64,000 bases of DNA from Pseudovirgaria hyperparasitica. Lineage: Eukaryota. Positions 2,403-59,011 of this stretch are shown one piece after another. The position numbers were made by a program, and so were the translations under genes. The stretch lies in assembly GCA_010093815.1 (NCBI GenBank), contig ML996586.1. One strand, 5' to 3'. The first letter of the stretch is position 1. Each line of letters opens with the position of its first letter. Under the pieces are notes generated by a model that did not search any database, had not been told where the DNA came from, and saw only the letters and a list, made by a program, of their open reading frames with translations.

Positions 2403-2435
2403 ATTATTAGTTAAGGGCTACCCTTAACTAATAAT
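2403..2435. repeat. Shared palindrome, 15-bp arms
   Basis: ATTATTAGTTAAGGG-cta-CCCTTAACTAATAAT. Confidence 0.95.
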
Positions 2436-2581
2436 CCGGGCTAAGGTTTATCCGCGCCGAGAGGTTTACTAGATATATATTTTATTTATATTAAGGTCTT
2501 TCTTTTAGGCGTTCTTTATATAGTTTCTTATATAGTTATTATACTACTAAGGGTAGTAGTTCTATAGGCCGGGGAGGTATA

Positions 2582-2954
2582 TATAGAAGGCCGCTTCTAT
2601 AGCCCTATATATATATATCCCTAGCTCGATTATATGGCTTTATTATATATTTAAAGAGGGCGTTTCCTTACTTATTCTACTTAGCACGCTTCCCCCTAAT
2701 TACTAATATTTAACTATTTAACTTTTCCTTATGTTTATAGGCTTCTATAGGTATTAATTATTAGGCTTAGCTATTAAAGAATTAATTAAGAGTATTATAT
2801 AGACCTACCCTACTATATAAGAGAACTAATAAGAAGTTATACGTTTAAAGAGAACTTATAATACCTAGAAGAGATACTCGTGAGTTTGTCGCGACTACTA
2901 TACTAGGAAAATAACTATTTATAAAAGAGATACACGTGGCGATAGCTTACTATA
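2582..2954 (+). repeat. LTR of Gypsy B (3' LTR of copy 1)
   Basis: Reverse complement of the LTRs at 21909-22280 and 32950-33321. Confidence 0.92.
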
Positions 2955-4513
2955 ATAGTATACTTTATATTTATAAACTCTTCTAAAGAAACTTACGGAA
3001 CTATAGGAACTAGAGTCTAAGTAATATAGATATACTAATAATTATAAATCTTAGTAAGAAGATTTAAAGATTAGCTTAGATTTATATACCTTTATAATAG
3101 GAGTATTAGAATTAGTATTATCCTTACTAAACTTATAACTTTTTAGTAGGCGGGATATAGAGATCTTAGTCTTTTTACTAGAACCTATCCTAGGAATTTC
3201 TAGGTCCCTAGAGTATAGGAAGAAGTCCGAAGTAGTAATAATTTTTATACTATTTTAAAAAATAGTATATATTAGTAGAGATTAGTAAAGATTTATAAAA
3301 AATAAAGTTACCTAATAATTATAGTAACTATAGTAGTAGTAGTATCTTCTAACTTAGTATAATTAGTATTAGTTCTATACTTCTAGATATAATCCTTACT
3401 AATCTTATAGAGCTTATAGAAGGCTAACTCTAAAGTATTATAATTAGTATAATTATTCTTCTTATCTACCTTAGTTATATAAGGCCTAATATTAATCTAT
3501 ATAGAAATAAGTAAATTAGTAGAAAGTAGTATAGTATCTATATAAATACCTATAAATAGTTATACTTCTTAGTTAGATATATACTATATATTATAGAACT
3601 AGTACTACTATAAATATGAGTCTTAGGAAACTAATAATCTATATACTTTATACTTAGAAGATTATTATCTAGACTAGTAGAGGGTAGAGTTATAGCCTTT
3701 AATATATTAGTAATATAAGCTAGGCACGGATTATTTAAAGACGTAGCCTTCTTTACTAATTACTTTATAGTATTAAGGTTTCGGGAGACTATAGTACGAT
3801 TATTATAGATCTAAGTAGAATTATAATAAAGTATTATAGTTATTTAAATCCTTATATAAAACCTTATAGATCTAAGTAGAATTATAGTAAACTATTATTA
3901 ACATAGGCTATTTATATAGAAAATTAGTAAATCTATACTAATCTAAGTAAACTAATATAAAGCTATATCTATAGAGAACTAGTAGTATACCTAGTAATCT
4001 AAGAAGTTCTATAAAAAGTTATAGAGTTTTTTAAAGAAAGAAAATATTCTAAGGAAAGATTTATATATAGGACCTACCTAGACTTACCTAATTAGATTAT
4101 ATAGACGCTAGTTCTATTTAGATAATACCCTTTAGATTAATAGAACTAAGGCGTTTAAACGGTATCTATAGATATTAGTTTAGTTTAGTATAAATAGTCT
4201 ATAGAACCTAGATAATAGATATAGAATAGGGTAGAAGTATAAAGATTAATATTACTAAGGGTAGCTCTCTAAAGGAAGGGGATTATTATTAGAAATTAGC
4301 TAAAGGCTAGACTAGATCTATATATATCCGAGCCTATATAGTAAGAGATAGTATAATAGGTAGTAAGCGGTCACGTACTAGATATATTAGTATACCTCTA
4401 GATATATACTCTTTAATTACTACTAAGGGGGCTTAGTAGTAATTTATTCTATATAAGAATACACCCTATTATTCTATCTAGCTATACTACTATTAATTAA
4501 CTCTATTCTTATA
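2955..4513 (+). mobile_element. Gypsy family A, second copy: 3' region plus 3' LTR (4287-4513), interrupted on the left by Gypsy B copy 1
   Basis: Matches 43533-44515 joined to 49808-50382 without the LINE insertion. PPT AAAGGAAGGGGA precedes the LTR. Confidence 0.92.
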
Positions 4514-4722
4514 TTAGATATATTACTAAGAACTTATAATACTCTAGTTTAGTTATAGTCTAAGACTATATATATTATATAATATAGTCTATTTATAAGA
4601 CTCTACTCTATAATACTATACTCTATAAGACTCTACTCTATAATACTAATACCTTTAGAATCCTAGGAAAGTAGTTTTAAATTTAAGACTACTTATAGTC
4701 TACTAGTTATAGACTACCCTAG

Positions 4723-5694: not shown

Positions 5695-8600
5695 TATTCT
5701 ACTAGGAGGTCTAGTAGGCACGGAGTGCCTCTTTCTACTTATCTTAAGTCCACGACCGTATATTTTTTATAAGTTCTTAAAGGCTCTACTAGTCTAGAAG
5801 AGCGTCCGGGTTATCTCGGACTTCTTATACTACTTAGCTAGAGTCGGCTTCTATTAAGTACCTATACCGTATTTAATTCCGGCCTATATATAGAAGTACG
5901 CGGTAATATATACTAATTCGTATACGTAGCGCGGCGAAAGTATATTCTACGTTTCCTATGCGTTCCTATACTTATTATATAGTAAAGTATACTACCCTCT
6001 ATATCTAGTAGAAGTTATATATACTTATAACGTCTATCTCGCGTCGTAGTAGTACCGTATTAGTAGCTTTATATACGCCTAATATAAGACGGAGTATACG
6101 GTTCTATATAGATTTAAGCTTTATTCGCCTAGTCTATATAAGGGCTGTATACTAGTACTCGTGTCCGTACGTAAAGGCGGGCCGTACTATAGATATATAT
6201 AGCTAGCGTGCCTTATCCCGGGTGGTTCTCTATATAGAGGCTATAATCCGTTGTATAGCGGCTTCTACCCGGAGGGCCCTAGAGACGGCGTATACTACTT
6301 ATAGTCCCTATTTAAGCTTGCTATCTAGTATAACTCCGAGCGCGCGCATGCTTTATACTAGTAGTTTATTAAATGCGTCGATTCGGGGGCGTTATTCGCC
6401 TTCCCTAGTTACCTATTTCCCTTAACGATTAATAAAGTACATAAGTTAGTATTTCTCTAGGGCGAACTTTACTCCGTGGCGTTTTACCTACTAGAGGCAC
6501 CTCTCGTAGTCTTATTCTAGTCGTCTATATATTCGGTTGGTATTATTATCGATGGCTAGGAGGTATATATTATTAGCGTATCCGACTACCTCTATATACT
6601 TTATTTCTTAAAGAAGGTCTACTATAACGAAGAGGAATAGGATCGGAGAGATAGTACTCCCTTATAGGATGCTATATACCGTCTCTTTATATTCGCTCTA
6701 GTATCTAGGGATATATATCTAAGTTATTCTTCCTATAAGGAATAACTATATAAAGCGTATAATCTATTCTAGTATTCATCTTATCCGGAGGTTATGAATA
6801 AGTCTTATATAGTTTACCTTATTAAACGCTCCGGCTATATTAAGAGAGAGGAGCGATACTACCCGTCCCTATTTCTATACGGCCTAGACGACTTTAATAA
6901 TATATTAGATAGCTATTATTAGGGAGCTATCTATCTTTACCTTCTAGTTCGGAGGGAGGAGATTATATTTCTATACCGCGGTACTTATCTTCTTCGCTAT
7001 CATGGTCTCTAGTATCTTATCTAGGTAGAAGAGAAGGGCGATTAGTCTCTATCCCTTTAGGGAGTTAGGGCTCTTTTCTAGTTTCGGGAGTATAATAGTA
7101 TAGGCGACTCGGAAGCTCTAGGGGTAGTACCCCTACGTGACGTATACTTAGAATATATAAGTAATAAGCGGTAGGGTCGCTTTTATAGTACTTTTTAGGC
7201 ATCGATTTAGAATTCTATCTAGTCTAGATACTTTATTATTTAGGAGTATCTTAATAATATTAAGTATATTCTCCTCCGTAACTTCTTTAGGGATATCTAC
7301 CGTGTATAGATATTCGGCGCCGTGAACGTCTAATAGGTCTACTAGTTCCGGGAGAGGGAACATGGCCTCTCGTAGGGCCTTAGTTTTCTTAAGGCTTATG
7401 GAGTATATTCTCCCCTAATATATTAGGGAAGGTATAAGTGGCGGGGGTATCGGAGTGTCTACGCCCTTGGCCCATTTCGCTATACGCCATAGCCCTATTA
7501 CGTATCGTGTCTATTAACTAGTAATTATATACTACTATTTACGCCTTTCGTTACGGAGGACTTTATCGCGTTATTATATCGCTTCCTTCTATTCTTCCTA
7601 CGACTCGGGTATTCTTATATAGTATACGCGTATGTATAGCCTTCGGGCGTCTTATCTACTTTCCCGTACTCGAGGAATCCCCTTTACTTCCGGGGGCCGG
7701 TATATTTAGTATAGTACGTGTTTATTTCTCGCCTTCTAGTATATTTATAGGAGTATCTATACGGCCTGGTCTATGGCTAGGTCGTTAGATATATCGACTA
7801 TAGAGGGATCTAGGATCGCCGATTCTAGGTTCTTTAGGTACTTTTCCTAGTTAGTATCCTTCTATATCTATCGTCCCCGTTATTTATTCGGGGTATATAC
7901 GTTTATTATAGTTTCTATATATTTATAGTCGGAATCCGTCTATACCTAGCCTAGGCGGTAGTATTAGATCTAGTAACTAATATACTCTATAGCGAAGGTA
8001 AGGTTAAGCGTAGACCCGTCTTCGTCCTATTTATGTTTTTTCTATATAACTTATTCTATAGGTGTAAGTAGGTATAGGAAGTTATGGTAGCGGGTGCGTA
8101 GTTCCCTTACTCTAAGTTCTTCCCTAACTACGGCTAGGTCTCCCTACTATTAGTAGTAGAGGTTAAAGTCTCCTAGGAGGATATGTTACCCTAGTTCCGT
8201 GGTACCCTTAAGTATCTCGTCTAGTATAAGTATATATTATTAGTTATATATGTTATATATATATAGGGGGCCTATATCTGTTTATAGGTGTAGTATTATC
8301 CTAAGGTTATCTCGCTTAGTATACAACCATAATAAGAGTAGTATTAACCTATAAATATAGAAGAGGACTCGTCCTTCTAGTCCTAGAGGGTATATAGTAT
8401 AGTATCCGGGGTATATAGTTAGTTTACTCGTCTAGTAGTATTTATAGGGTTTCTAGATGGCGAGTATTATAGCCCTAGTCTCTTCGAGGAGCGTCGCCTA
8501 GTTCTCTCTTTTATATTATACGTTTATCTATATAATTCGGAGTATATTCTAGTCCCTTATTAGATACTAGGGAGTGTATATACCTATATACTTATTCCTT

Positions 8601-10273
8601 AGAGGCGCGACTATCCTCGCGCGGTAGCGGCTTTAACTATACCTTTTAGTCGTCCTATCGTCTTCGGGATAGTCTACTATCCCGCCTAACTACCTTCTAG
8701 AGGGGAGGTTAGGGGTATTATAGAGGAAGGGCCCGTAGTAGATATTATATTCTATAACTATCTCGCGCCTCTCGCTTTTATCGTGCGAATGTATTCTATA
8801 ACCTATTTACGTTTTATATATGTTAACGACTATAATAGATATTTCCCGTCGTAGTTTAAATACTATACTATATCCCTGTTTCTTAGTCCGTCTCCTCGCG
8901 GTTTATAAGGGCACTCCTAGATAGCGTGGTCCCTACGGTACTATCCGTACTTAGTCTTCTATAAGTACCTTTATATAGTGTGTCCATACCCTTAATAGTT
9001 AAAGTACTATATTATTACCTATATCCTATTCTATGGCTCGGCTATAAGGAGCTCTCCTTCTACTAGGAATCCCTTCTATATAATATATTATACGAGGGCG
9101 GGGTCTCGGAGCTCTATAATTATAGTAGAGTGTTTTTTCGCCGTCGTCTTAATCGCCTATGGGTTCTTCTACCACGCTTTTATAATCTTAATCCCTAGGT
9201 ATTTTCGCGTGTTAGATTATTCTATACGCGTAATATTCTCCGCTCTAATAGCCTATCCCTATACGGGTACTACGTATACTATAATTAGGTATATAGCTAC
9301 CCTAATAGACGCGCTAGAGAAGATACTATCTATTACGTTCGGATCTCGCGAGATGTTTTACTACGTAGTATTCATTATAGTAGTAAGTACTACCCTACCT
9401 AGCGTAACTTTAGTAGCTACGACGCTCGACTATATTCCTTTCTATTTATTAATCTTATTTATAATTTCCTTTAGGGATATCTATTAGACCTACGCTAGTA
9501 TATCCTTATCCTAGATTATAATACGTATACTATATACTCTATCTATAGTCCTAGTAGTCCTTAGTACGGTAGCTCCGGGTGTTACTATAATCTAAGCCCA
9601 CGTGTTAGGGCGCTTACCTTAGGATAGCTCTTCCTAGATTCTCCGTAGGCTAGCTTCTATTTAGTTAAGCCTACTACTAGGTTCCTCTCGTGGCGACTTC
9701 CTTTCTTCCTCCGTAATTTCTCTTAGATTCTAGATAAGGTCCCGGAATATATAAAGAAGGGTCTTCTTTCCCTTCTCGGCGTCTCTCTCTATACGTATTA
9801 CCTAGTATTTAATTTTATCTAGGAGGGTCTCCCCTCTCGGGGTCCCCTTAGTCTAGGTTATCTATAGCGCTTTACACCCTTAGTTAGTTCCTATATTTTA
9901 GATAGGTGTCTAGCTATCTATATTAATATCGCTATATAGCCGTTTCTACTATACTAGTAGGGGTATATCCGGCGTATACCGGGGTATTACAATACCTAAG
10001 GCCGCCATAGTTATTAGTTAAGGGTAGCCCTTAACTAATAAAAGGGGGTCGGCATATTAGCGTTTATTAGATATAGTCTATACTCGTGTTATTGAAGAGT
10101 CTTCGAGTGTATATATATAGTATCTCTATATATCGGTATCGTCGTGTATTATACGCTATACGTACGCACGTATGTCGGAGGTTATTATACTCGGTATACT
10201 CTATCGTTTAATATATGTAAATCGCTGTTTTACCCTAAATTGACTAGTTTAGTCCGTTGGGGTGTGAGAAGTT
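5695..10273 (-). mobile_element. Tad1-clade-like LINE (ORF1 with CCHC knuckles, ORF2 with APE and RT), RIP-degraded; 3' end lost in the gap
   Basis: De-RIPped minus-strand motifs: CFNCQGYGH (~8980-9010), LLGDFNLHH (~8155-8180), SDH (~7930), GIPQGS and GYADD (~6570-6680). Colinear with 45180-49793, with the same 5' end GAGAAGTT. Confidence 0.92.
10011..10041. repeat. Shared palindrome, 14-bp arms, just upstream of the putative LINE ORF1 ATG (10008)
   Basis: TTATTAGTTAAGGG-tag-CCCTTAACTAATAA. Confidence 0.95.
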
Positions 10274-21908: not shown

Positions 21909-22280
21909 TGTAATGAGCCATCGCCAAGTATGTCCCTTTTTATAAATGGCTATGTTCTTAGTATAGTAGTCGCGACGAACTCACAAGTATCTCTCCTAGG
22001 TATTATGAGTTCTCTTTGAACGCACGACTTCTTATTAGTTCTCTTTTATAATAGGACGGGTCTATACAATACTCTTAATCAATTTATTAATAGCTAAGCC
22101 TAATAATTAATACCCATAGAGGCCCATGAACGTAAGGAAAGGTTAAATCGTCGAATATTCGTGATGGGGGAAGCGTGCCGAGCAGAATGACCAAGGAAAA
22201 CGCCCTCCTTAAATATATAATGAGCCATGTAATCGAGCCAGGGACATATACATGTGGGGCTGTAGGAGCGGCCTTCCATA
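21909..22280 (-). repeat. 3' LTR of Gypsy B copy 2
   Basis: Direct repeat with 32950-33321. Confidence 0.96.
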
Positions 22281-22426
22281 TATACCTCCCCGGCCTATAG
22301 AACTACTACCCTTAGTAGTGTAGTAACCGTATAAGAAACCGTGTGAAGAACGCCTAAAAGAAAGACCTTAATACGAATAAAATGCGCCCCTAGTAAACCT
22401 CTTAGCGCGGGTAAACCTTAGCCCGG

Positions 22427-22459: not shown

Positions 22460-22479
22460 TAGGTAGGTTTTTAGGCGCC

Positions 22480-32945: not shown

Positions 32946-32949
32946 AAAT

Positions 32950-37438: not shown

Positions 37439-39523
37439 ATTAGAGAAAGACTAGAGATAGTACTATTAAGTTTTAACTACCTATATAAATTAGAGGAGAA
37501 AGCTAATAAACACTACCGCATCCTTAAGGAACGCGGATCTCTAGGTAAATCTAATAAACCTAGAACCGGTTAGAAGCGAGGTCGATTAAATACGTTCGAT
37601 TAAGAGTAACCTTAATACGATTAGCGCTAGAAGAGCGTAAATTAAAGTAAATATACGCTAAGAGGATACTAATCTAGTCACGGTAGTAACTCTTAGCGTA
37701 GAAAAGGATAAGGCATAGGCTTAAATGCCACGCCTATCGTAAAATAGTAGAACTATAGCGCACTAACGTACTATAAGTATAGTAAGAAGGGATATATCTC
37801 CCCGAACTATAAGAATCTAAAAAAAGAATAGACTATTACGCGAGACCTAACCGCGTTTTTAGCTAAATTATATATACTTAGGAGGAGCTATAGAGGCTTT
37901 CTACGAGTAAGGACCTAATTCTACTAAAAGTATCATTACCTATAGTAAATAGTACTAAAACTATAAAGCCCTCGTAGATACTAGCGTAGAAGATAACTAT
38001 ATCTTACTAATCCTCGTAAAAGAGTATAGATTATCGTATAACCTTAGTAAAGTTAGCTGAACTATCGTAGTTAATAGCTATAAGATTAGAACTCTAGGTA
38101 AAACTATAATAAACTACGAAGTTCATAATTTAGAGATAATAAAATAGTATATAACTAATAAGTTCGTCGTTACTAATATCGGATAATAGAATATAATTCT
38201 AGGAATACCTTAGCTAAAACGCCTAAACCTAATCCTTAACTTTTAGAAGAAGATATTAACGTTCCGTCGGCATCGTGGTAGATTATACTAGTAAATTATA
38301 ACTATTAGTAAGGAAGCATGGAACCTCGCTATACGGACCCGATCGTTACTAATTTACCTTATATCGCTATTAACCATCGACGAAGACGACGATAGTAACC
38401 CTAATTAGAGTAGAGATATACTATCTAATACGTATTCGTAGTATGCGGATATATTTTCGGTAGGAGACGTATCGCTTCTCCCTAATCATAGACTATATAA
38501 GCTAAAGATTAAGCTCGAAGAGGGAGTAGACATCTCTTATAGTCTACTCTATCTACTTTTAAGGCTTAAACTCGAAGTTCTTTATAAATATATTAAAGAG
38601 TTCCTTAGAAGGGGTTAGATACATCGAAGCACGTTATTAGCCGGCGCGCCTATTCTCTTCGTAAAGAAGAAAGATAGTAGCTTATACCTTTACGTTAACT
38701 ATTAGGTATTAAATATAGTAACTAAGAAGAATCGGCATCTATTACTACTAGTTAGTAAATCTTTAGACTAATTAACGAAGGCATAGTACTTTATAAAGCT
38801 AGACTTACGAGATACTTATTATCGACTCCGAATTCATCACGGAGATAAGTAGAAGACTATATTTTAGACTAGATATAGCTACTTTAAGTATACTATTATA
38901 CCGTTTAGACTAATAAATATACTAGGAGCGTTTTAAGGCTATATTAATACTATACTAGTAGAACTACTTAACGTGATCTATGTCGTTTACCTTAATAATA
39001 TCCTAATTTACTCCGATAGCATAGAAGAGCATATAGAATATATTAAATCCGTGCTAAATCGGCTAAGGTAACATAAGCTTTACGTAAAATTATTCAAATG
39101 TAAGTTCTACCAACGAGAAGTTAGGTTCCTTGGCTTTATTATAACATATAGCGGCCTAAAAATAGAGCTAGAGCGTGTAAAGACTATCATGGAATGGCTA
39201 GAACCTACTACCGTACGTTAAATTAGGACGTTTATAGGGTTTATAAACTATTACCATAAGTTTATTATAGGTTTCTCGCGAATTACGGCGCTACTTAATA
39301 AGCTTACTAAGAACGGCGGTAATATATCTATAGGTAGGCGAGCGTAGCGTAAAGCGGAGTTAATTAAAATATAGTTAACGCCGGAAGCGCGAGATGCATT
39401 CTAATCGTTAAAGAATTACTTTATAACTACGCCGATTCTTAGATATTTTAATCCTAAAAGATATATTTAGGTTAAGATAGACGCATTAGAATTCATAATT
39501 ACTAGAATTATTAGTTAACTATA

Positions 39524-41034
39524 ATAATAATAATAATAATATTGTATAACTAGGTAGAGTAGTACTCTATAGGCCTATGCCTCCTCTAGTCTAAGCCACT
39601 ATATAAGAAGAAACCCCATAGGGAAAAACTTCCTTATGTCTATAACTACATCTCGTGGAACCTCTGTTTCGTCTTAAGTATACAGCCATAGGGTACGCCT
39701 ATTAGCCTATAGCCTATGTTACCATTGTTTTACCCTTAGGCAGCACGTGTAGGTACGGAGGTTATTAGTCAAGGGCTGCCCTCGACTAATAATCGGGGTT
39801 TGCCTAGGGTTCTTCTAGTATATGTCGGGCCTCTAGTTCGAAGTCGGATAACTCCTATAGGTTCGACGTGCCCTATACCATTAGACTCTACTCCTGTTTT
39901 CGCCTTATCTTATCCCCTTTAGACTTATACCTCCGGCTCTACTAGAAGAGGGGCACGACGCCTTATCTAGCTAGGAAACTACGAGGTTTACTCCTTAAAC
40001 TCATATTACTAGCGTGCGTGCCTAGCGACACGTTCTATCTCTTTATAAATCGATACGCGCATCCGTTCTCTCGGGCTATATAGTAGTCTCCCCGGCTAGG
40101 ACGTGATCCCGCCTACTTCTAGGTATACTAAAGGTTAGAGCCTATTAAAGGGGTGAGGTCCTTAGAGCTAGTAGTTACTACTATATACCACGCCCCGCCT
40201 TTAAGCATGGCTACTATCTAGTTTCACGTTATCTATGAGGATCTCTCCATGATAGGCCGACCGTGTCTTATAGGCGAGCATCCTTTAAATCCTATACATA
40301 TATACTCGCGTGACGCGCCTAGGCAACTTAAGTATCCTCTATCTACTAACCCGACTTATTTCTACTACTTTTTAATGGGTCCCTATAGCCGCCTCTTGCC
40401 TATGTCCGTGTACTATTATCTATGTATACTAGCGCCCTACCTCCTACGGTAGACTATAACATCTCTCGTACACGGGAGCCGCTCTATCTATCCTAGACCT
40501 AAGCGGTATCCCGTATCGAGTGAAAGGTCTTAATAGAGTCGCGCTACTAGTGGTCGCGCTAGGCGTCTTAATAAACGTAGTTTAATACTATAGGAGAGTT
40601 AGCCTTAATAAGTTCATCCGCGGTAGTTTATAGTTACCCTCAACGTGATTTCTCGCTAATCCTTATGTACCTAGAGCCATTTAAGCCTCGAGGTGTCCTA
40701 TCGCGCTACTAGGACTTCCGCTTTCTCTACCCACATGGTAAGGTAGATTCAGGCCTACTTTCAATATAGTAGTAGCGCGTTAGGTGGTTTTCTTATCCCG
40801 GTATTCTCGTGGACTCCTCTTAACGCGTTAATTAAGAATAGGATAGAAGTATATACTATTCTAGCTGGTTTATTACGGTGTGGTCCCTATAGAGTAACGC
40901 GTCGCGAAAACTCTATAACCACCTATCTAGCGACGACGAGGTCGCCATTAACGCCGCTCCGAATCTCTTACTACCTCCGAAGAGGCATTGCCTAGCTACG
41001 ACGACGTGGACGCGGTTCGTGAGACTTCGTAGCC
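39524..41034 (-). mobile_element. Non-autonomous chimeric retroposon: ~1-kb non-coding head plus LINE 3' end and tail, inserted in the RNase H of Gypsy A
   Basis: 13-bp TSD TTAGTTAACTATA (39511-39523 and 41035-41047). 39524-39830 matches the LINE 3' end 44516-44785; 39982-41034 is homologous to 56786-57791. Confidence 0.9.
39762..39792. repeat. Shared palindrome in LINE-derived 3' UTR, least RIPped full copy
   Basis: TTATTAGTCAAGGG-ctg-CCCTCGACTAATAA. Confidence 0.92.
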
Positions 41035-43416
41035 TTAGTTAACTATATAAAGATACGAAAGATAAGGTATAATAGTACCCGGTTACCTTCTTTTCCCATA
41101 AAATAGCGGATATAGAGACGCGTTATAATACGCATGACTAGGAACTACTTATAATTATTAAGAGTTTTAAATATTAGCGATATTATCTAGAGGGTTCTAT
41201 ATATTAGATCGAATTATTATCGGACCATGTAAATCTACGTTACTTTATATTAACTAAGATACTTAATTACCGATAAGTATATTAGGCTAAGTAGATATTA
41301 ATATCTAACTTTAAAATCTTATATAAAGCCGAAAGAGAGAATAAGGTAGATCCCCTATTAAGGCGTAAAGATTATAAGAAATCGTTATAGATTAAGGTAG
41401 ATAGTTAGTATACTTTAGACTATGCTATGCTTAAGATATTATAAGACTAATTATCTAGTAGAGTACCGGAAGCTAGAACACTTTCGGTAACTCTCCGCGG
41501 GAAATAGAGCGGGTATTAAGTAATTAAAACTAACGTCTAAGAATTAGACTAAATTCTTAAAGACTTAATTAAATCTATCTAAAGTTCTAATGCATTAGTA
41601 AAGAATATTATAGATATATAGGAATGTGCCGTAGACTAGCTATGGTTATTAAGGTGGGAACGCCGATTAGACGCGATCTACTTCTAGAACTATCTCTACG
41701 TGCCGGAAGGTGGCCTATAAATTACTATCTTAAGAGAATAGTATAATTACGCGTTAGTAGAATACTTCGGCGTTACGAGAATAACTAAATTAATCTAAAG
41801 AATATATAACTAGCTAGGTCTTTATAAATATATAAAAGAATACGTAAAGACATGTAACGTCTATTAGTATACTAAAGTATATAGGCACTTACCATATAGC
41901 GAATTAAGGCTATTACCTATACCGAAAGAGGTATAGAAGGAACTATTAATAGATTTCATTACCGATCTACTACTAAGTAAGTATTTTAGTACTATTTATA
42001 ATAGCTTACTTATAGTTCTAGATAGATTTACGAAGATATCGTACTATATTCCTATAAGGAAGATAATCTAAGTACCGGATCTTATAGATGTGCTCCTCTG
42101 TAAGGTAATTAGACTCTATAGTATACCGAACGGTATAGTTTCGGATAGAGGTCCGTAGATAACGTCTAAATTCTAGAAAGACTTCTACTATACGCTAGGA
42201 ATCAAGCGGAAACTTAGTACTATATTCTATCTATAAATAGATAGGTAGACGGAACGGTAGAATTAGATAATTAAGGCGTATCTACGTACGTATTATAACT
42301 ACGAGTAGAATAACTAGGTAAGGCTAGTATATATTACGGAATTCGCGTATAATAATAGTCGATATACGTTAACCTACGTAAGTCTATTCGAAGCGAACTT
42401 CGGTCGTAACTATAATATATAGTTTATCGGAACTTAGTTTAAAGCTATATAGCTAAACGTTAAAGCGACGGAAATTACTATAGAACTATTCTAAACGTAG
42501 AGAAGCGTTAGAAAGCTACTATAGAATACTATAGATTATAGTAAATCTTACCACGATAGGCGAAGAAAGCCTATAATCTTTAGCGTTAGAGATAAAGTTC
42601 TACTAAATAGTAGGAATATTCGGAATATTAGGCCTAAGAAGAAGCTTAACTATATAATGATAGGTCCCTTTAAGGTTACTTATGTAATTAATAACTAAGC
42701 GTACGAGTTAAAGCTTCCTCTAACTCTAAAGATATATAATATATTCTATATTACGCTTCTTAAACCATTTCATGCCTTATTACTACCGGATTATTCCGAA
42801 TAGTAGATATATAAAGTAGTTATATAAGAAGGTATAGACATCTACGAAGTTAACTAAATACTTAGCTAATAACGTACCGAAGATAGTACATGGTTATATA
42901 AAATTCGCTAGAAAGGCTATAGTCCGGACGAAGATATATAGGAACCTATAATAAATATTAGTAAAGTAGCGATATTAGTATATAAGTAATAATTAATAAA
43001 GGAAGTCGATAATCTATATAGAGATGCTCCGAAGCACGGCGAATCTATATATTTTAGTATAGTTTAGCGTTAAGGGCGACCCCCGAAAAGAAGAAAGGTA
43101 AAAGTTAATAAGAATTAATAAGAAATTAATAAAGACTTCTTAGGAAATTCCTTTAAAATTCCGAATCTAGGAACTTAGAAAATTAAAGTTAGGAAAAATA
43201 CCTCTAAGTAGGCATGTAATATAAATCGGTATAGATTAGTAGAAATTACTAAAGAAAAGAAGATATTATTAAAGAAAGATAAAATTATAGACTAAAGAAA
43301 AGAGATCCGTAAAGATCTATATAAATCTACCTAGAAAAAGCTAAAAACGCTAGATAAAGAAATAGAGTAGTACCGATTAGTATAAATCTAAACTAATTAA
43401 GGGCGAGCGGGGGGAG

Positions 43417-44370: not shown

Positions 44371-44515
44371 AATATAATTATTATAGATCTAAGTAGATTT
44401 ATAACGAAGTGTTATAGCTATTTAAATCTTTATATAAAACCTTATAGATCTAAGTAGAATTATAGCGAATTATTATTATTATAGACTATTTATATAGAAA
44501 ATTAGTAAATCTATA

Positions 44516-47500
44516 ATAATAATAATAATATTATATAACTAGGTAGAGTAGTACTCTATAGGCCTATGCCTCCTCTAGTCTAAGCTACTATATAAGAAGA
44601 AACCCAAGAGAGGAAAACTTCCTTATGTCGATAATTACATCTCGTTAAACCTTTGTTTCTTCTTAAGTATATAGCTATAGGGTACACCTATTAGCCTACG
44701 GCCTATATTACCGTTATTTTACCCTTAGGTAGCACGTGTAGGTACGGAGGTTATTAGTTAAGGGGTTCTTCCGGCATATGCCGGGTTTCCTCTAATGTAT
44801 ACTAGGTTTCTTCCGGTATATATTTCCGGGTCTACTAGAATTAGAGGAGTAGTAGGTATATAATCATCTACCGGGCGACGTCCTTAGGGTACTTATTAAG
44901 CCATTATATAATATCGGAGGTTCTTATTATATAGATAAGCTTCTACCTTTACGTGTGAAGATCGGGGTATATTATAAGATAGTGGCGTATTATACCTCTC
45001 CGGCCGCACGTCTTATACTATAGAGATACGTCGGGGACGCCTCTCTTATAGAGGTAGTATAGAAGTTCTATAGCGCCCGTTCGGGCTTAGAGGAGTATAG
45101 ATGCCTAGGCCTTTATAAGCCGTTTATATATCTATTTACTCGGCTCCTTCTATGGTCCTTAGATCTACTCTAGATACCTATTCTACTAGGAGGCCTACTA
45201 GGCCCGGAGTATCTCTTTCTACTTATCTTAGATCTATAACTATATACTTCGTCCGAGCTCTTAAAGGCTCTATTAGTCTAGAAGGGTATCTAGGTTATCC
45301 TTAATCTCTTATACTACTTAGTTCGAGTCTATTTCTATCGGGCACTTATACCATAGTCGAGTCCGGCCTATATATAAGAGTACTTAGTAGTATATACTAA
45401 CTCGCGCGTGTAGCGCGGCGAAGGTATATTCTATATTTTCTACACGTTTCTATGCTTATTATTTAGTAAAGTATACTACTCTCTATATCTAGTAGAAGTT
45501 ATATATACTTATAACGTCTATCTCGCGTCGTAGTAGCACCGTGTTAGTAGCTTTATATACGCCTAATATAAGACGGAGTATACGGTTCTATATAGATTCG
45601 AGCTTTATTCGCCTAGTCTATATAAGGGCCGTGTGCTAGTACTCGTGTCCGTACATAAAGGCGGGTCGTACTATAGATATATATAGCTAGCGTGCCTTAT
45701 CCTAGGCGGTTCCCTACGTAGAGGCCGTAATCCGGTATATAGCGGCTTCTATCTAGAGGGCCCTAGAAACGGCGTATGCTACCTATGGTCCCTATTTAAG
45801 CTTATTATCGATTATAACGCCGAGTGTGTATATACTTTATATTGGCGGTTCGTTAAAGGCGTCTATTCTAGGGCGTCACTCGCCTTCCCTAGTAGCCCAT
45901 TTCCTACGGCGGTTAATAAAGTACATGAGTTAGTACTTTTCGGGGGCGAACTTTACTCTATGGCGCTTTACCTATTAGACGTATCTCCCGTAGTCTTATT
46001 CGAGTCGTCTATATGTTTAGCTAGTATTATTATCGATAGCTAGAAGGTATATATCGTCTACGTATCCTACTATCTCTATATATTATATTCTCTAGAGGAG
46101 GTCTATAGTAAAGAAGAGGAAGAGAATCGGGGAGATAGTACTTCCTTATAGAATGCCGTAAGCCGTCTTCTCGTACTTACTTCGATATCTAGGGATGTAT
46201 ATCTAGGTAACTCTTTCGGCAAGGAAGGACTATATAAACCGCGTAATCCACGCGGGTATACGCCTCTTCCGTAAGTTATAGATAAGTCTCGTGTAGTTTA
46301 CTTTATTAAATACGCCGGCCATGTCGAGGGAGAGTAGCGTTACTACACGTCCCTACTTCTATACGGTCTAGACGACTTTGAGGATATATTAGATAGCGGT
46401 AATTAGAGAGCTTCTAGCCTTCGCCTTCTGGTTTACTAGGAGGAGGTTATATTCCTATACTACGGCGCTTATCTTCTTTACGATTATAGTCTCTAGTATC
46501 TTCCCGAGATAGAAGAGGAGGGCGATTAGCCTCTATCCTTTTAGGGAGCTAGGGTTCTTCCCTAGTTTCGGGAGTATAATAGTATAGGCGGCCCGGAAGC
46601 TTTGGGGGTGGTATCCGTTCTTAATATATACTTAAAATATATAACTAATGAGCGGTAGGGTAGCTGGTATAGTGCGTTTAAGGTACCTATTTAGTATTCT
46701 ATCCGGTCCGGGTACCTTATTATTCGGGAGTACTTTAACGGCGTTAAGTATATCCTCCTTAGTAACCTCTTAGGGGATATTAATTACGTCTAGATATTTA
46801 GTATTATTAATATCTAATAGGTCTACTAGCTCCGGGAGGGGGAATATAACTTTACGTAAGATCTCCGTCTTCTCCGGGCTTATAGAGTATATTCTCTCTT
46901 AGTATATTAGGGGAGGTATTAGTGGCGGCGGTATCGGCGCGTCTACACCCTTAGCCTACTTTACCATGCACTATAGCCCTACGGCTTACCGTGTGTGTTT
47001 ATCGGTAATTATATACTATTATTTTCGTCGTTTATTACGGAGGGCCCTATCACGATATCGCACTACTTCCTTCTACTCTTCCCACGCCTCGGTCGTCCGG
47101 ATATAGTATACACGTGTATATAGTCTACGGGTATCTCTTCTATACTCTCGTATTTAAGGTATACCCCTTGCTTCTAGGGGTCTATACGTTTAGTATAGCA
47201 CGTGTTTATCTCTTATAGCTTAGTATACTTAAAGGAGGACTTACACGGCCTTGTCTATGGCTAGGCCGTTGGATACGTTAACTATAGAGGGGTCTAGAAT
47301 CGCCGATTCTAGGTCCTCTAGATATTTATCCTAATTAGTATCCTTCTATAGCTATTTCCCACGTTATTTATTAAGAGTGGAGACGTCTATTACGGTTTCT
47401 ATATATTCATGGTCGGAGTCCGTCTATATCCGGCTCGGGCGGTAGTACTATACTCTATAGCTAATATGCTTGGTGGCAAGGGTGAGGTCGAGCGTAGACC

Positions 47501-49793
47501 CGTCCTCGTCCTATTTATATTTCCTCTAGGTAATCTACCCCATAGGTATAAGGAGGTATAGAAAGTTATAGCACCGTGTATATAGTTCCCTTACTCTAAG
47601 TTCTTCTCTCGCGACGGCTAGGCCTCCCTACTACCTATGGTAGAGATTAAAGTCGCCTAGGAGGATATATTATCCCGGCGTTGTGGTGCCCTCGAGTATA
47701 TCGTCTAGTATAAGCGATTACTATTAATTATAGATGTTATAGATATGGAGAGGCCCTATACTTATCTAGAGATATAGTATTATCTAGAGGTTATTACGTT
47801 CGGTATAAGACCATTCTAAGAGCGGGATCGACTTATATATATAAAACATGACTCTCCTATCCGGGCCCGTAGGGTGGATAGTATAGTATCCTAGGTGTAT
47901 TATTAGCTTATTAGTTTAGTAGTGTTTATATAGTTCCTAGATAGCTATTATTACGGCTCCTGTCTCTTCTAGGAGCGTCGCTTGGTTTTCTCATTTATGT
48001 TATACGTTCGCCTATATAATAATAAGTATATCTTATACCCTTATTAGGTACTAGGGAAAGTTCGAGTCTATATATTAGTGGCGCTAAGGCGTGATTATCC
48101 TCGCGCGGTAGCGGCTTTAAGTATACCCCGGGGTTAGCCTATCTTTCTCTATATAGTATACTATTACGCGTTATCCTCTCCCCTTCGGGGGGTGGTTACT
48201 AGATTCATAAGTAAAGTTAGGGATAGCGGCGAGGGTAGCGAGGGCCTTATAGCTTGGTATATCTACCTCGCCTCTCTTATCTTTATCGCGTTAATATATT
48301 CTACGACCTACTTACGTTTCATATACGTTACCGACTAGGATAGGTATTTCCCGTCGTAGTTAGAGTACTTAGCGGTGTCCCTATCTCGCGTCTCGTTACT
48401 CTACGTCTTATAAGGGTATTCCTTAGTATTATAGCCCTATTTATACTACCTATAGGCGGTCTTCTAAGAGCACCTCTGCCTAGTATACCTATATCCTTAA
48501 TAGTTAAAGCATTACGTTATTACCTATGCCCTATCCTATAGTTCCGCCGTGAGTAGCTCTCCTTTAGCTAGAAAGCCCTCCTATATTATTCTATAGGCGA
48601 GAGCGGGGTCCCTAAGCTCTACTATTATAGTAGAGTACTTTTTTAATTTTATCTTGATCCCTTAGACGTTCTTCTACCACGCCTTCGCGATCTTAATCCC
48701 GGGGTACTTCGGTTTGTTAGATCGCTCTATTCGCTCGATATTATCTTCTCTAATAACGTGTCCTTAGATAGGGACGGTATATACCTATATTAGGTACATG
48801 GTTACGCGGATAGACGCGCTAGAGAAGATGTTATTAATCACGTTCGGGTCGCGCGAGATAGTCTACTAGGCCGTGTTAGTAGTAGTAGTTAGTACTATAC
48901 CTCCTAGGGTGAGTTTGGCGGCCACTATATTTAACTATATCCCTTTCTATTTATTAATCTTATTTATAATATCCTTTAGAGACGCTTACTAGACTTATAC
49001 GAGTACTTCTTTATTCTAGATAGCGACTTATATACTATATACCCCGTCCGTAGGTACCCTTAGTATTTTAGCTAATATAGCTATTCCGCTTATAGGTGCG
49101 GCGACCTATACCTACGTGCTAGGGCGTTTTCCCTAGGTAAGGCCCTCCTAGATCCTCTATAGGCTGGCCTCTATACGATCTAGTCTAGATTCTAGGTCTA
49201 GTTCCGGCGCCTATTTTACTCCTATAGTAAGCTCCCTAATATTCCGGACGAGGTTCCGGAAGATACTAAGGAGGGCCGTTTCTCCCTTCTTAACTTCCCC
49301 TTCTATACGTGCTACCTAGTAGTTAATCTTATCCGGGAGGGTCTCCCCGGGTAGAGTCCCCTCTATCTCTATTATCTATAGCGTTATACGCCCTTGGTTA
49401 TTCGTCGTTTATTAGACGGGGGTTTAATCATCCTAGGATATACCGCTATATGGCCGTTTCTACCGTACTAGTGTTAGGGGTATACCTAGTAGAAGCCGAG
49501 GTACGTCGGTACCTAAGGCCGCTATAATTATTAGTAAAGGGCTACCCGTAACTAATAAAAGGGGGTTAGCGTATTAGCGTTTATTAGAGATAGTCTATAC
49601 TCGTATCATCGAAGAGCCTTCGAGCGTATATATATAGCGTCTCTATACGTCGGTATCGTTATATACTATATACTATACGTACGTACGTGTATTGGAGGTT
49701 GTTATACTCGGTATACTCTATCGTTTGATGTATGTAGATCGCTATATTACCCCGAATTGACTAGTTTGGTCCGTTAGGGTATGAGAAGTTTTT
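44516..49793 (-). mobile_element. Full-length Tad1-clade-like LINE inserted in the 3' region of Gypsy A
   Basis: 14-bp TSD TTAGTAAATCTATA (44502-44515 and 49794-49807); empty site visible at ~3924-3937. Short (TAT)n tail on the element strand; ORF1 knuckles, APE and RT motifs as in 5695-10273. Confidence 0.95.
49528..49558. repeat. Shared palindrome (2 mismatches) upstream of LINE ORF1
   Basis: TTATTAGTAAAGGG-cta-CCCGTAACTAATAA. Confidence 0.88.
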
Positions 49794-55991: not shown

Positions 55992-56234
55992 CCGCAGGCC
56001 TCACGAGTATTAGGACCCATTGCATTACCACTTTCATATCGTAGCAATATTGTTCATTGTTTGTATTTACAAATGAAGTTCATCCTCCTAGAACGGTTGA
56101 CAACGAACGAACACATTTACCCCTCCCCTCCTAAGGCAAGAATATTTGCGACCTCAGATCGATATTAGCTCCTAACCTCGAAATAGACCGCCGCCTCTAC
56201 TTACGATCATCAGGGTCCTTCATGTTCCTCGTAC

Positions 56235-56420
56235 TCATTCTTGGTGCTTGTATTGGTCGGCCTTCGTGTCGCGATCAACCGGTTTGCTGACAGATGCACC
56301 CGAGCCTCCACCTGGAGAGTTGGCACGAAGGTTGCGTTCGCTGAGATCAGGATTGTCAGCTTCCTCAAGGGAAGACAAAGCCTTCCAGGGCTGAATCTTA
56401 GGAGTATTTTCAGACGGCAT
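56235..56420 (-). CDS. Possible 61-aa hydrophilic small protein
   Basis: ATG in a CAAAATG context in unRIPped intergenic DNA; no recognisable domain. Confidence 0.3.
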   Translation of the reverse strand: MPSENTPKIQPWKALSSLEEADNPDLSERNLRANSPGGGSGASVSKPVDRDTKADQYKHQE

Positions 56421-56785
56421 TTTGTAGTATGTGTTGAGTAAACAATTTTCTTGTTGACGAGGAATAGCTTTGTCGCAGTATGATCTGTCTTGGAAGGCGG
56501 CAGGTGAGAAGGCTGGGACTCGTGACTATTTATCAAACATGCCTGATGACTTCAACATACAAGGCAAATTCGCCAAGCCTGCATGATGAGGGGTAGTTAA
56601 CCCGGTAGAGCATACAATTCATCGGTCTGTCCCAGTTGCATGAGACTCTTGGCACTCCGATGTTCAGTCCTGCCGCGTATATTCTGAATTATTATGAGAG
56701 CGACATTGGTACTATTGTAAGCATTTAATCGCATATTGCCAATGTTTATCGCTGTACCGTCCTAATAATTATATACAAGTGAGTA

Positions 56786-59011
56786 GGCTGCAACGTCTCA
56801 CGAAACGCATCCACGTCGAGGTTCGGAGTGGCGTTGATGCCGACCTTATCGTCGCTGGGTGGCTAGGTGCAAGCTTTGCGACGTGTCACTCTAGTAGACC
56901 ACCCACGATAAACCAGCTAGGACCTTATGCGCATACACCCTGCTCTCGATTGACGCGCTAAGAGGAGTTTACGAGAATATCGAAAGCAGGCCGGATCCTA
57001 CCTAGCCGTCTAGGTAGATGAAGCGGAAGTCCTAGTAGCGCGACAGGGCACCTTAAGGCTGAATGGCTCTAAGAACGTAAGGATCAGCGAGAAATCACAT
57101 CGAGGGCAACTATAACTACTACTAACGAACTTGTTAAGGCTAATTCTCCTATAGTATTACTACGTTTATTAAGCCATCTAGCGCGCCTACTAGTAGCACG
57201 TCTCTAGTAAGACCTTTCGCTCGAAACGTTACACTAGGGAAGAGGCAGAGCCATATCCATGGCTATCACGTACGGGAGATATTATAGTCTACCGTGGGAG
57301 GTAGGACGGTGGAGCACACAGTCAATGGAACAGAACCAGGTAAGGGGAGTTTACAGGCCATCATTAAGAGCAGCGGACACAAGTCGGGTTAGTAGGCAAG
57401 CGGAGCCTAAGTCGCCTAGGCATGGGATCCAAATGCTTCTCTGTCTACAAGACACGGTCGGCCTATCGTAGAGAGATCCTCATAGACAACACGAAACTAA
57501 AGGATCAGAGACAACAGGCTGAGCCTCCTGAAAAATAAAGGGATCAGGCAGGTCTATCTATATAGTCTAGAGGCGGGGCGTGGTACGTGGTAGTGACTGC
57601 TGGCTCCGAGGACCTCACCCCTTCATCAGGCTGTGACCCTTGGTGTACCTAGAAGCAGGTAGGATCAAGTCTCGGCCGGAGAGACTACCACGTGGCCTGA
57701 AAGGACGCATGCGCGTGTCGATTCATGAACAGATAGAACCCATCGCATTAGGTGGGCACACTGGTGACATGAGTTTAAGGAGCAAATCTCGCGTTTACTG
57801 GGCTGAGAGAGGTTTGGCTCCGCCTAACTCAGAGGAAGACCCCCTAGGTCTGAAATCCAGTTCAGGGCTTGGATGGACATACAAGCAGCTCGAACCTGAG
57901 CGCCACTCGTGGTGAAACGGAGGCAAGGCAAGATTGGAAGCAAAGTGAAAACCAAAGCCGCCTGCCGCAATGGCTAAAAGGGAAATGGGATAAGAAAGCA
58001 GATATATATAAAGCACTGACCAACTTCCTCCACATGAAGAAGGTGCCTGAAATACTCCCGTTGTGCGAAGACTGCGGCGAGCTGGGCACTGTGCGCCATT
58101 ACCTTACTTTCTGCCAGAAACTAGAAGGCCCGCGGCGACAATTAGCACACGATACCCCCACGACTAAGGGGGTGTTTGAGACCTCAGGTCGATTTTTGAC
58201 CTCCAGAATAACCTTATTTTTAAGCGTTAAGACGGCGTCCGGCCACACTAAATCCATAGTTTCTCTTAGGTTTACCGAAGTTTTGGCGAAATCGAATAGA
58301 TTCGAGTTTTCTTACGGGCGAAAAATACTTGCTGCTCGAAAAAGGTCGATTTTGACCTCCGACTATACTCTAAAAAGTTAGATTAAGCCACCCCGTCGAC
58401 CGGTTCTCTTAGTGCCGCTTAGTGTATATACCCTGGTCATCAGCTCGGGTTTTAAGCTGGAGGTGGGATACGATTTTAAACACTCGGCGGAAAAATGGGA
58501 ATTAGAGGTCAAAAAGGTCAAAAAACGACCTTCACCTGAGGTTTCAAACACCCCCTAATTCGTGTGTATGGCTAAACTCCTTTCCTAGGGCGGTGACCAT
58601 CTAGATGCTCCGTAACCTCCCTCTTCAGCAATACGAGTAGGCACGCCAACATATGCCCGGAATAATCACTGGGCCGATCGTGGATAGTAGCTCAAGGCCG
58701 GCCCTTGAATTACCCAGGACGCGTCCTCTAGACCCTACTGCTCTACCCTAGCACGCTCAAGCTGATCACGTCTCCTTGAGACATAAGCGCCTACTCGCGC
58801 TGCCTACGGGCAACTTTGGTCGATAGTGTCGCGAAAAGTGTCGGAAAATAGTATGGTTGCATGTTCTGCAATACTTAAGCAGTGCGATTTTTTGCCTGTG
58901 AGCCTTAGGGGCTTATTAGGCCTTCTCTTATATAATAGCTTAGACTAGACGAGGTGATATCGCCTGTAGGGGTAACCCTGCCTAGTAATCCATTTCATTA
59001 TTACTATTACA
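56786..59011 (+). mobile_element. Chimeric retroposon: same ~1-kb head plus 5'-truncated LINE (ORF2 C-terminal Zn finger, 3' UTR, tail), only lightly RIPped
   Basis: The 5' end GGCTGCAACGTCTCACGAA matches the 5' end of 39524-41034. CEDCGELGTVRHYLTFC at ~58063-58113. 3' terminus TAGCTTAGACTAGA...GCCTAGT resembles the LINE end; ATTATTACTATTAC tail. No TSD found. Confidence 0.82.
58168..58555. mobile_element. PIF/Harbinger (Tourist-like) MITE, 388 bp
   Basis: 22-bp TIR GGGGGTGTTTGA(G/A)ACCTCAGGT with 1 mismatch; TAA on both sides (58165-58167 and 58556-58558). Confidence 0.9.

Follow-up and report, generated by a model that had tools for sequence, protein, structure and literature searches.

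A perfect 31-bp palindrome common to a Ty3/Gypsy retrotransposon and a LINE of Pseudovirgaria hyperparasitica: a candidate portable hairpin module

This locus raises the question of why one palindrome of about 31 bp recurs in retroelements of two unrelated superfamilies. Hairpin signals are already known within single retroelement families. If an identical hairpin marks ORF boundaries in an LTR element as well as in a LINE, this would be evidence that unrelated retroelements trade cis-signals or need a common factor. A shared hairpin would then offer a way to study how fungal retroelements cross-mobilise, are packaged or escape silencing.

The survey covered one window, the whole stretch of 64,000 nt that was analysed. 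The pattern scan of the window showed six matches to TTATTAGTTAAGGG-N3-CCCTTAACTAATAA at ≤3 mismatches: four with 0 mismatches (2404, 10011, 22428 and 29706), one with 2 mismatches (49528) and one with 3 (39762). No match to the full pattern was obtained in any of 100 dinucleotide shuffles, and the recurrence, which the original prediction had described, is far beyond chance. The predicted sites are real, but the starts given as 2403, 22427 and 29702 were early by 1–4 bases because additional flanking bases pair too. The site at 32418 is a degenerate copy and not the full pattern (24/28 specified positions match by eye). Because the centre GGGC-W-GCCC is itself palindromic, the unit has no spacer and is a perfect odd palindrome of 31 bp. 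A RIP-tolerant half-site scan of the window (≤1 substitution) gave 11 plus-strand matches, namely eight sites and three others (635, 25490 and 47364) that have no partner arm. The same scan found no half-site match in the host genes of the window, in line with the original prediction, which had noted none there. Rfam covariance models gave 0 matches at E up to 1 in the whole window.

The elements that carry the palindrome are as follows.
21909..33321, minus strand: Gypsy B, a Ty3/Gypsy element of 11.4 kb, nested inside another Gypsy
22431..24578, minus strand: ORF2 of Gypsy B, about 700 codons, RIP-damaged, homologue of PhyH-like 2OG-Fe(II) dioxygenases
44514..49792, minus strand: full-length LINE of 5.28 kb with a 12-bp TSD (TTAGTAAATCTA); empty site at about 3923-3934
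39522..41035, minus strand: 5'-truncated LINE copy with an 11-bp TSD (TTAGTTAACTA) and a (TTA)n tail
5695..10273, minus strand: second LINE copy, 75% identical, its 3' part masked by an N run (4855-5694)
56818..59013, plus strand: un-RIPped relative of the LINE 3' region, 67–77% identical to 39525-40967

The earlier labels of these elements stand. Gypsy B is a Ty3/Gypsy LTR retrotransposon by its direct LTRs, TSD and RT-RNase H-integrase order. Its LTRs (21909-22276 and 32952-33321) are 95% identical, with TG..CA ends, an ATAG repeat as a short TSD and an RT_RNaseH match inside the element. Among the relatives listed, RNase H and integrase zinc-binding domains were found in 10/10, RVT_1 in 9/10 and rve in 6/10. 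A partial Gypsy B copy at 2-2970 (plus sense) is the reverse complement of 21896-24860 at 85.7%. The second element is a non-LTR retrotransposon (LINE), as indicated by a reverse transcriptase (RVT_1) without LTRs, TSDs, truncation, a tail and CCHC knuckles in ORF1 (read from the translation).

The copies of the palindrome are distributed over these elements as follows.
2404..2434: copy A1, in the partial Gypsy B copy, about 150 nt ahead of the 3' LTR, 0 mismatches
22428..22458: copy A2, in the full Gypsy B, 151 nt ahead of the 3' LTR, with the ORF2 stop within an arm
29706..29736: copy B, at the Gypsy B protease/RT junction, in frame with gag-pol
32418..32448: copy E, degenerate, in Gypsy B, 503 nt past the 5' LTR and close to the gag start
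10011..10041: copy C1, in the second LINE copy, 232 nt from the 5' end
49528..49558: copy C2, in the full-length LINE at the place equivalent to C1, 2 mismatches
39762..39792: copy D, in the 5'-truncated LINE, 240 nt from the 3' end
44751..44764: D', a half copy within the full-length LINE's 3' tail
58692..58708, plus strand: related hairpin with a 6-bp stem, in the un-RIPped diverged LINE tail at a roughly orthologous place

Self-BLAST showed that 2404/22428, 10011/49528 and 39762/44751 are paralogous positions. There are therefore five independent sites and not eight; a single Ty3/Gypsy element accounts for three of them and a single LINE family for the other two. The predicted half-site at 44751 was confirmed; its left arm is intact, and it is without 33 bases that copy D has. 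Copy D is the least RIPped copy, with the arms GTCAAGGG / GTCGAGGG. The core TCAAGG-N5-CCTTGA is present at 58692-58708, as had been noticed (1 match vs. 0.01 expected). MAFFT aligned this core some 15 columns away from the 39762 palindrome, in a diverged version of the same LINE tail. The two tails differ by about 30%, and by eye the 17-base core is 14/17 identical to the palindrome and carries one U-A to G-C double change. In the proposed pre-RIP consensus, TCAAGG is borne out by 39762 and 58692, but the C of the outer TCAG is kept in no copy.

Outside its centre, the palindrome as it now stands is free of CpA. RIP thus cannot touch it there, and its perfection in RIPped copies is no sign of selection. 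Comparison of paralogues showed the palindrome to be no better conserved than the flanking sequence, and RIP-type changes were found at the centre of paralogous copies. That all 28 arm bases are nearly identical in two superfamilies speaks for recent copying and not for constraint alone. The search for motifs in RIPped genomes calls for the same caution, since a CpA-free sequence stays perfect by mutational immunity and not by selection.

BLAST showed that the sequence common to different contexts is limited to 31–42 bp, and at copy B the palindrome extends to 51 bp. The shared length (31, 41 and 51 bp) varies about a fixed centre. In 45 comparisons the flanks of different sites showed no extended homology (z ≤ 3.9), and the four alignments that were inspected all lay away from the edge of the palindrome. 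The unit thus does not derive from a single larger insertion; such an origin had been named as fatal to the original prediction.

Each copy forms the tip of a longer, site-specific imperfect foldback of about 60–115 nt. The tip has a stem of 14–15 bp and a loop of 1–3 nt, whereas the lower stems differ in sequence from site to site. Pairing at copy B reaches 18 bp (29702-29740), and copy E has a 10-bp stem within a foldback of about 85 nt. The flanks pair with each other more than at 3000–4000 random positions drawn from all TE sequence, not only from UTRs. For the five independent sites, Fisher p was 2e-5 to 4e-4 on the plus strand, 4.5e-5 to 1.8e-3 on the minus strand and 1e-5 to 8e-4 with DNA parameters; without copy E it was 0.001–0.055. 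No strand asymmetry favouring the sense RNA was seen, and the antisense strand pairs slightly better because of T-rich composition. Any two copies of the palindrome are mutually complementary.

All palindrome sites lie at ORF boundaries or in UTRs. The LINE 5' copy has an in-frame stop inside its arm, and the ATG of LINE ORF1 follows copy C1 2 nt on (10008-10006, minus strand). Copy A2 straddles the ORF2 stop. At the protease/RT junction, the gag-protease ORFs of six listed relatives end at most about 45 residues from the stretch matched to copy B, and the pol ORFs of other relatives start only after it. The palindrome has one stop-free phase, and copies E and B sit in that phase.

Contigs from sequencing runs X1, X2 and X3 were compared with the locus. 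In run X1, 49,423 contig pieces were compared with 22300-42299; among the 12 indel rows and 15 joints listed, out of at least 26 and 17, none removes the palindrome at A, B or E, which weakly supports its fixation at these sites. Contigs of X1 and X2, two runs of one sample, join a palindrome to the flank of copy D. A contig of a third run (X3, from a second sample and study) matches up to the final base of copy D. It continues for 30 letters that by eye are the reverse complement of 9981-10010 save five C-for-T differences. This shows that there is a LINE 5' region that carries the palindrome and is less RIPped.

Our preferred reading, to which we give somewhat less than an even chance, is that the 31-bp unit is a portable nucleic-acid hairpin module used by both retroelements. 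Of the three options in the original prediction (a binding site of a dimeric protein, a hairpin signal in RNA and a tiny mobile motif), the hairpin is favoured since the palindrome is continuous through its centre and unrelated flanks pair at each site, neither of which a duplex protein site needs. We infer that the active founders of both families, one Ty3/Gypsy and one LINE, already had these foldbacks. The positions of the unit are confined to stretches under low coding constraint and to points of translation start, translation stop or domain change. The hairpin would act in the single-stranded nucleic acid of the elements (RNA or cDNA) as a recognition module for one trans-acting factor common to both. 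Candidate factors include a zinc-knuckle chaperone, a packaging protein and a translation factor. The unit may have spread between the families by recombination or template switching. A bolder proposal, which we consider rather improbable, is that a hairpin cassette exchanged between the LTR retrotransposon and the LINE is the docking site of one factor for both, either a zinc-knuckle RNA chaperone from one of the elements or the 2OG-Fe(II) dioxygenase borne by the Gypsy. If true, one family could hitch-hike on the other or share its protection. Since any two copies are mutually complementary, such a cassette could bring about pairing between the two ends (5' and 3') of a single RNA or connect RNAs of both families.

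A tiny mobile palindrome without effect, akin to bacterial REP or fungal mitochondrial GC-cluster palindromes, that entered active retroelements several times and survived only at tolerant positions, is unlikely but deserves the most weight after the hairpin module. It would account for the identical 31 bp in five unrelated contexts, the variation of the shared length about a fixed centre, and the placement of every copy in a UTR, linker or ORF end, with both copies in translated regions using the sole open phase. However, no direct target-site duplication flanks any of seven copies, whose flanks are instead inverted complements. The conserved centre and differing outer parts are the reverse of a MITE, which has conserved TIRs and a variable interior. 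No empty site was seen among the indel rows and joints listed, and the window's ~16 kb of host DNA contain no copy, although such an absence is expected about 1 time in 10 by chance. The flank pairing would require preferential insertion into hairpin tips, and five insertions in two active founders imply a very high rate. Even less credible is an effect of the integration machinery of the LINE, with the palindrome as its by-product or target; we regard this as very unlikely. The palindrome arm does resemble LINE insertion sites: the arm 12-mer ATTATTAGTTAA occurs four times in the window, three times in palindromes and once where the 5'-truncated LINE inserted (39507). The target there, TAGTTAACTA, is a palindrome as well, and both TSDs begin with TTAGT and finish with CTA. 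Yet only two insertions are readable, outside the palindrome ATTAGT...ACTAAT pairs (4) show no excess over direct pairs (3 and 5), no LINE was seen inserted in a palindrome, and the GC-rich core is unaccounted for.

That the palindrome serves as duplex DNA to bind a dimeric protein, such as an ORF2-encoded anti-silencing factor, is decidedly improbable, though somewhat less so than the integration effect. The two-fold symmetry fits such a site, and ORF2 is a genuine gene whose homologues match at E = 5e-77. PhyH was found in 3/9 relatives scanned, and ORF2 aligns across that region; it has an oxygenase-type motif HxD...H whose first H reads Y in the RIPped copy. Transposon-borne dioxygenases have also been published (PMC12730594, PMC9289625). 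A continuous 31-bp palindrome with pairing flanks nevertheless exceeds the need of a dimer. Pfam searches of all six frames of the element detected no domain for DNA binding where ORF2 lies, nor did a scan of nine of its relatives, the LINE has the motif but no ORF2-like ORF, and the copies are single and dispersed, not in arrays. The suggested link of ORF2 to a VANC-like system is thus unsupported. Chance, convergence by RIP, or an assembly or adapter artefact is refuted for practical purposes. RIP does drive C/T differences to a common end state and so inflates identity between copies, but the shuffles gave no match, paralogous copies show RIP-type differences at the centre, and contigs of X1 and X2 join a palindrome to the flank of copy D while a contig of X3 runs up to its last base, as described above.

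Several known systems resemble the present case in part. Bacterial REP/REPIN sequences, fungal mitochondrial GC clusters and PstI palindromes each place one short palindrome in many unrelated contexts. These are prokaryotic or organellar, whereas the present palindrome is nuclear and all copies seen are inside retroelements. The VANC/VANDAL anti-silencing system of Arabidopsis uses motif arrays in the family that encodes the binding factor. It shares with the present case a short motif repeated inside a transposon, but here the hairpins are single and also occur in a LINE, and ORF2 is dioxygenase-like. Retroviruses and Ty elements have palindromic dimerisation, packaging or cyclisation signals in leader or trailer RNA. 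Those signals are likewise self-complementary, as any two copies here can pair, and they are family-specific; we know of none common to an LTR element and a LINE.

'Stringent' LINEs have 3' UTR stem-loops in common with their SINEs (PMC5135761). Copy D likewise places a stem-loop in the 3' UTR of a LINE, and an unrelated retroposon has it too. The differences are that it lies 240 nt from the 3' end and does not adjoin the tail repeat, that the palindrome is also in the 5' UTR, and that the partner is an autonomous LTR element. GalEa Copia elements carry a Conserved Hairpin Site (CHS), likewise a hairpin in ascomycete LTR retrotransposons. It adjoins the 5' LTR in place of the primer binding site, whereas the nearest palindrome copy (E) is 503 nt off. 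The CHS has a loop of 12–41 nt and occurs in Copia only, in contrast to a perfect 31-bp palindrome at several internal Gypsy sites and in a LINE. Only the 6-mer ATTAGT/ACTAAT is common to the CHS and the outer stem of the palindrome, and it occurs 73 and 61 times in the window. The CHS also has RIP-type variants, CTGATCAGT / CTAATTAGT (the 9-mers CHSeq1/CHSeq2), and an 'extended CHS' of 33–62 bp is conserved in more than one family of a single species.

A pattern scan of the window for TTATTAGTTAAGGG-N3-CCCTTAACTAATAA showed no mismatches at 2404, 10011, 22428 and 29706, two at 49528 and three at 39762. None of 100 dinucleotide-preserving shuffles contained any match, against these six at no more than three mismatches, and the palindrome reported in the original prediction is therefore real. 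The predicted sites exist, but three of their starts had been placed 1–4 bases too early, where the adjoining bases also pair. The copy at 32418 is degenerate: by eye, it agrees with the pattern at 24 of the 28 specified positions. At 44751 the left arm alone is kept, as expected of a half-site, and 33 bases of 39762 are missing there. The related core TCAAGG-N5-CCTTGA is present at 58692–58708 (1 match versus 0.01 expected). A RIP-tolerant half-site scan of the window found no further palindromic site and none in the host genes, from which the motif had been said to be absent. Self-BLAST showed that 2404/22428, 10011/49528 and 39762/44751 are paralogous position pairs, leaving five independent sites (A, B, E, C and D). 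These sites and the elements around them are as follows.

Palindrome sites and main features of the window
2404 and 22428: site A, 151 nt before the 3′ LTR of Gypsy B, containing the ORF2 stop
29706: site B, between protease and RT of Gypsy B
32418: site E, 503 nt after the 5′ LTR of Gypsy B, close to the gag frame start
10011 and 49528: site C, ending 2 nt before the LINE ORF1 ATG, with an in-frame stop in the arm, four codons upstream
39762: site D, 240 nt from the LINE 3′ end
21909–33321, minus strand: Gypsy B, LTRs 95% identical, TG..CA ends, short ATAG repeat at the flanks
22431–24578, minus strand: ORF2 of Gypsy B, third ORF, downstream of pol, RIP-damaged
44514–49792, minus strand: full LINE copy, 12-bp duplication TTAGTAAATCTA at both flanks, empty site at approximately 3923–3934
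39522–41035: 5′-truncated LINE copy, 11-bp duplication TTAGTTAACTA and (TTA)n tail
12972–14597: CorA gene, 99% identical to a Pseudovirgaria hyperparasitica protein, which marks the window as fungal

The centre of the palindrome is GGGC-W-GCCC. The palindrome therefore runs through its own middle and is a perfect odd palindrome rather than two half-sites with a spacer. The sequence common to different contexts was 31–42 bp by BLAST; the palindrome reaches 51 bp at B and is lengthened on one side only at A. The 200-bp flanks were compared 45 times by RIP-aware local alignment, with z values of at most 3.9, and of the four alignments that were inspected none fell at the edge of the palindrome. 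We also looked for the case raised in the original prediction, that the motif is a piece of a larger insertion. The short shared length and the unrelated flanks ruled out a fragment of one larger shared insertion.

The Gypsy and LINE labels were borne out. Gypsy B has LTRs and an RT_RNaseH match, and among its ten relatives listed, RNase H and integrase zinc-binding domains were found in all ten, RVT_1 in nine and rve in six. The LINE has RVT_1 on the minus strand, target site duplications, a tail and an ORF1 with CCHC knuckles, the frame of which, knuckles included, is unchanged in both copies over approximately 600 codons. The empty site at approximately 3923–3934 proves that the 3′ tail with the half copy of D and the 5′ region with C are parts of one element. 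In the first LINE copy, an N run of 840 at 4855–5694 hides the 3′ part, and with it the place at which another tail palindrome would be expected. Gypsy B is nested in an older Gypsy (RT at 20364 and RNase H at 21117 before it, integrase SH3 at 34292 after it). A second copy of the older family (SH3 at 42525) is interrupted by the 5′-truncated LINE. The nested TE stretches are 17000–21908, 33322–35000 and 38800–43500. Host genes beside the repeat island are an NB-ARC/DUF7779 protein followed by TPR repeats (NLR-like; 61693–63827, plus strand) and an amidase fragment (53005–53535, minus strand). A palindrome of another kind with a 12–13 bp stem, ATTACTAC..GGGGGC..GTAGTAAT, lies at 4415–4444, ~16896 and ~50285; the three copies of another repeat (3924–4522 = 49794–50391 = 16770–17005) all retain it.

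No copy of the 31-bp palindrome is located inside a conserved domain. Sites E and B lie in the gag-pol frame, in the sole stop-free phase of the palindrome. All 25 matches of a representative search with the site B query cover the protease part only (residues 2–144), and six of them are proteins of 616–1143 residues that end within approximately 45 residues of the matched stretch. The ten pol relatives listed all align only from query residue 355 or later, the palindrome being residues 272–282; both sets of alignments leave these residues uncovered, and an insertion at B is not readable from them. Since these six proteins end soon after the protease match and the pol relatives align only past the palindrome, B lies at the gag-protease/pol ORF boundary of the relatives. 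The older Gypsy has an AT-only palindrome with a 12-bp stem and ATTAGT/ACTAAT arms at 20170–20196, approximately 200 nt upstream of its RT, which is roughly the position of copy B in Gypsy B.

Although flanks of different sites are unrelated in sequence, the left and right flank of every site pair with one another, so that the palindrome caps a foldback of approximately 60–115 nt. The five independent sites were compared with 3000–4000 random TE positions with the same 31-nt gap, and Fisher p values were obtained against this background of TE sequence of all kinds, in which UTRs were not singled out. With RNA parameters, p was 2e-5 to 4e-4 on the plus strand (15–40 nt flanks) and 4.5e-5 to 1.8e-3 on the minus strand (20–30 nt flanks). 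DNA parameters gave 1e-5 to 8e-4 on the minus strand (20–30 nt flanks), and removal of site E gave 0.001 to 0.055 on this strand with either parameter set. A strand comparison of the foldbacks did not find stronger pairing in the sense than in the antisense strand, an outcome that is a composition effect.

The repeats of the window bear a strong RIP signature, the (CpA+TpG)/(ApC+GpT) ratio being 0.08–0.48 near the sites versus about 1.35 in host genes. In the present-day palindrome, CpA and TpG occur only in the centre, and the paralogues differ exactly there (CAG, TAG, CTA, CTG). Most differences between paralogues are transitions. Between paralogues the palindrome is not clearly better conserved than its flanks: the two A copies differ at 1 of 31 positions (flanks 12–14%) and the two C copies at 5 of 31 (flanks 15–31%). 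Lacking CpA and TpG except in the centre, and without clear extra conservation, the perfect palindrome in dead copies reflects RIP immunity, not selection. Half of the predicted pre-RIP consensus is supported: its TCAAGG is seen in copy D and at 58692, but the C of its outer TCAG is kept in no copy. As a rough estimate from RIP indices, the loss of all these C's would occur in ~2 of 100 cases if the sites were CpA and hit independently. A reading of the core as a TTAA duplication (piggyBac-like) was rejected, since TCAA/TCGA stands there in the least RIPped copy.

The un-RIPped LINE tail is 67–77% identical to 39525–40967 and carries a related hairpin close to where D lies. By eye, its 17-base core matches D at 14 of 17 positions, the outer arms resemble each other only in part, and one stem pair is altered on both sides, from U-A to G-C. 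A related hairpin in a diverged tail indicates that the LINE-tail hairpin predates the split of these subfamilies. Pfam gave no match on 12 plus-strand ORFs of 53081–58378, so the un-RIPped copy is without a recognisable RT. In the ESM Atlas, the LINE-tail ORF gave unnamed clusters and one with RNase_H in 14% of its members.

Contigs of four sequencing runs (X1–X4) were matched to 22300–42299 at 80% likeness. X1 alone gave 49,423 matching pieces, indicating that the element families are very abundant. Of 26 indel rows and 17 joints, 12 and 15 were listed, some differences being left out of the count, and none of those listed takes the palindrome away from site A, B or E, which weakly suggests that it is fixed at these sites. 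On its right side the LINE-tail palindrome has an indel-prone flank: every one of the four runs has contigs with a 27-base skip there (39801 to 39829), and the half copy (44765) has 33 bases fewer than D. In X3, the match of one contig stops with the final base of D, and its next 30 letters are, by eye, the reverse complement of 9981–10010 bar five C-for-T, showing that a less RIPped LINE 5′ region with the palindrome and then the ORF1 start exists. Contigs of X3 and X4 that cover the LINE 3′ region 40188–41035 do so at <90% likeness and have G/C at positions that are A/T in the window, so the genome has less RIPped copies of the LINE elsewhere.

Stop-codon density shows that the frame of ORF2 downstream of pol is coding. 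Its translation, with stops as X, matched 13 proteins in other ascomycetes (best E = 5e-77, ~32% identity); the homologues are 824–911 aa long. Three of nine relatives scanned passed the threshold of Pfam PhyH (2OG-Fe(II) dioxygenase). ORF2 aligns over the PhyH region (HxD...H), with YLD where a relative has HVD, a RIP-type change, and retains the distal H and the RRT motif. By homology, ORF2 is a putative PhyH-like 2OG-Fe(II) dioxygenase, not a known DNA-binding protein. In their accessible text, published reports place transposon-borne dioxygenases in fungal DNA transposons and orchid Gypsy elements (PMC12730594, PMC9289625). A limited literature search found none described in an ascomycete Gypsy.

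A nucleic-acid hairpin fits the analysis better than a protein-binding site in duplex DNA. We speculate, tentatively but ahead of other readings, that a portable hairpin module is used by both retroelements. One factor would recognise it in both families, and it may have passed between them by recombination or template switching, with several copies per element probably already in the founders. These multiple copies speak for such a module, as do lower stems that keep pairing though their sequence changes, the old hairpin at an orthologous LINE site, and copies at start, stop and domain junctions. A neutral mobile palindrome is less probable and in our view doubtful. It accounts for the identity between copies and the tolerant positions, but leaves the pairing flanks, the absence of target duplications and the many insertions needed into active founders unaccounted for.

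A duplex DNA site for a protein, whether or not this is encoded by ORF2, appears improbable: nothing specific supports it, or the ORF2 link that had been proposed by analogy to VANC/VANDAL, and ORF2 is dioxygenase-like. Less probable still is that the palindrome is connected with the machinery by which the LINE integrates. The target of the 5′-truncated LINE (39507–39521, 41036–41046; duplication TTAGTTAACTA) is itself palindromic and includes the 12-mer ATTATTAGTTAA, which equals the palindrome arm, and the duplication TTAGTAAATCTA (3923–3934) of the other LINE starts and ends like TTAGTTAACTA. However, generic ATTAGT...ACTAAT pairs (‘empty targets’) are not enriched over direct pairs.

Rfam gave no match, and the RIP-tolerant full pattern had 0 matches in metagenome contigs, prokaryote genomes and viral contigs. 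A looser 21-base core had two metagenome matches, in GC-rich contigs with unrelated flanks, approximately the number estimated by chance. The literature search did not find the motif described. The palindrome, real and of well-defined anatomy, may be a retroelement hairpin signal of an unusual kind. The nearest case in the published text available is the fungal GalEa Copia Conserved Hairpin Site, the extended form of which is 33–62 bp and common to families within a species (PMC5445492). The text supplements of that paper contain no match to the palindrome core. As described there, the GalEa site differs from the palindrome in place, form and host elements, with no LINE carrier. LINE 3′ stem-loops that also occur in SINEs, as far as the accessible text describes them, are similar in spirit to the palindrome (PMC5135761).
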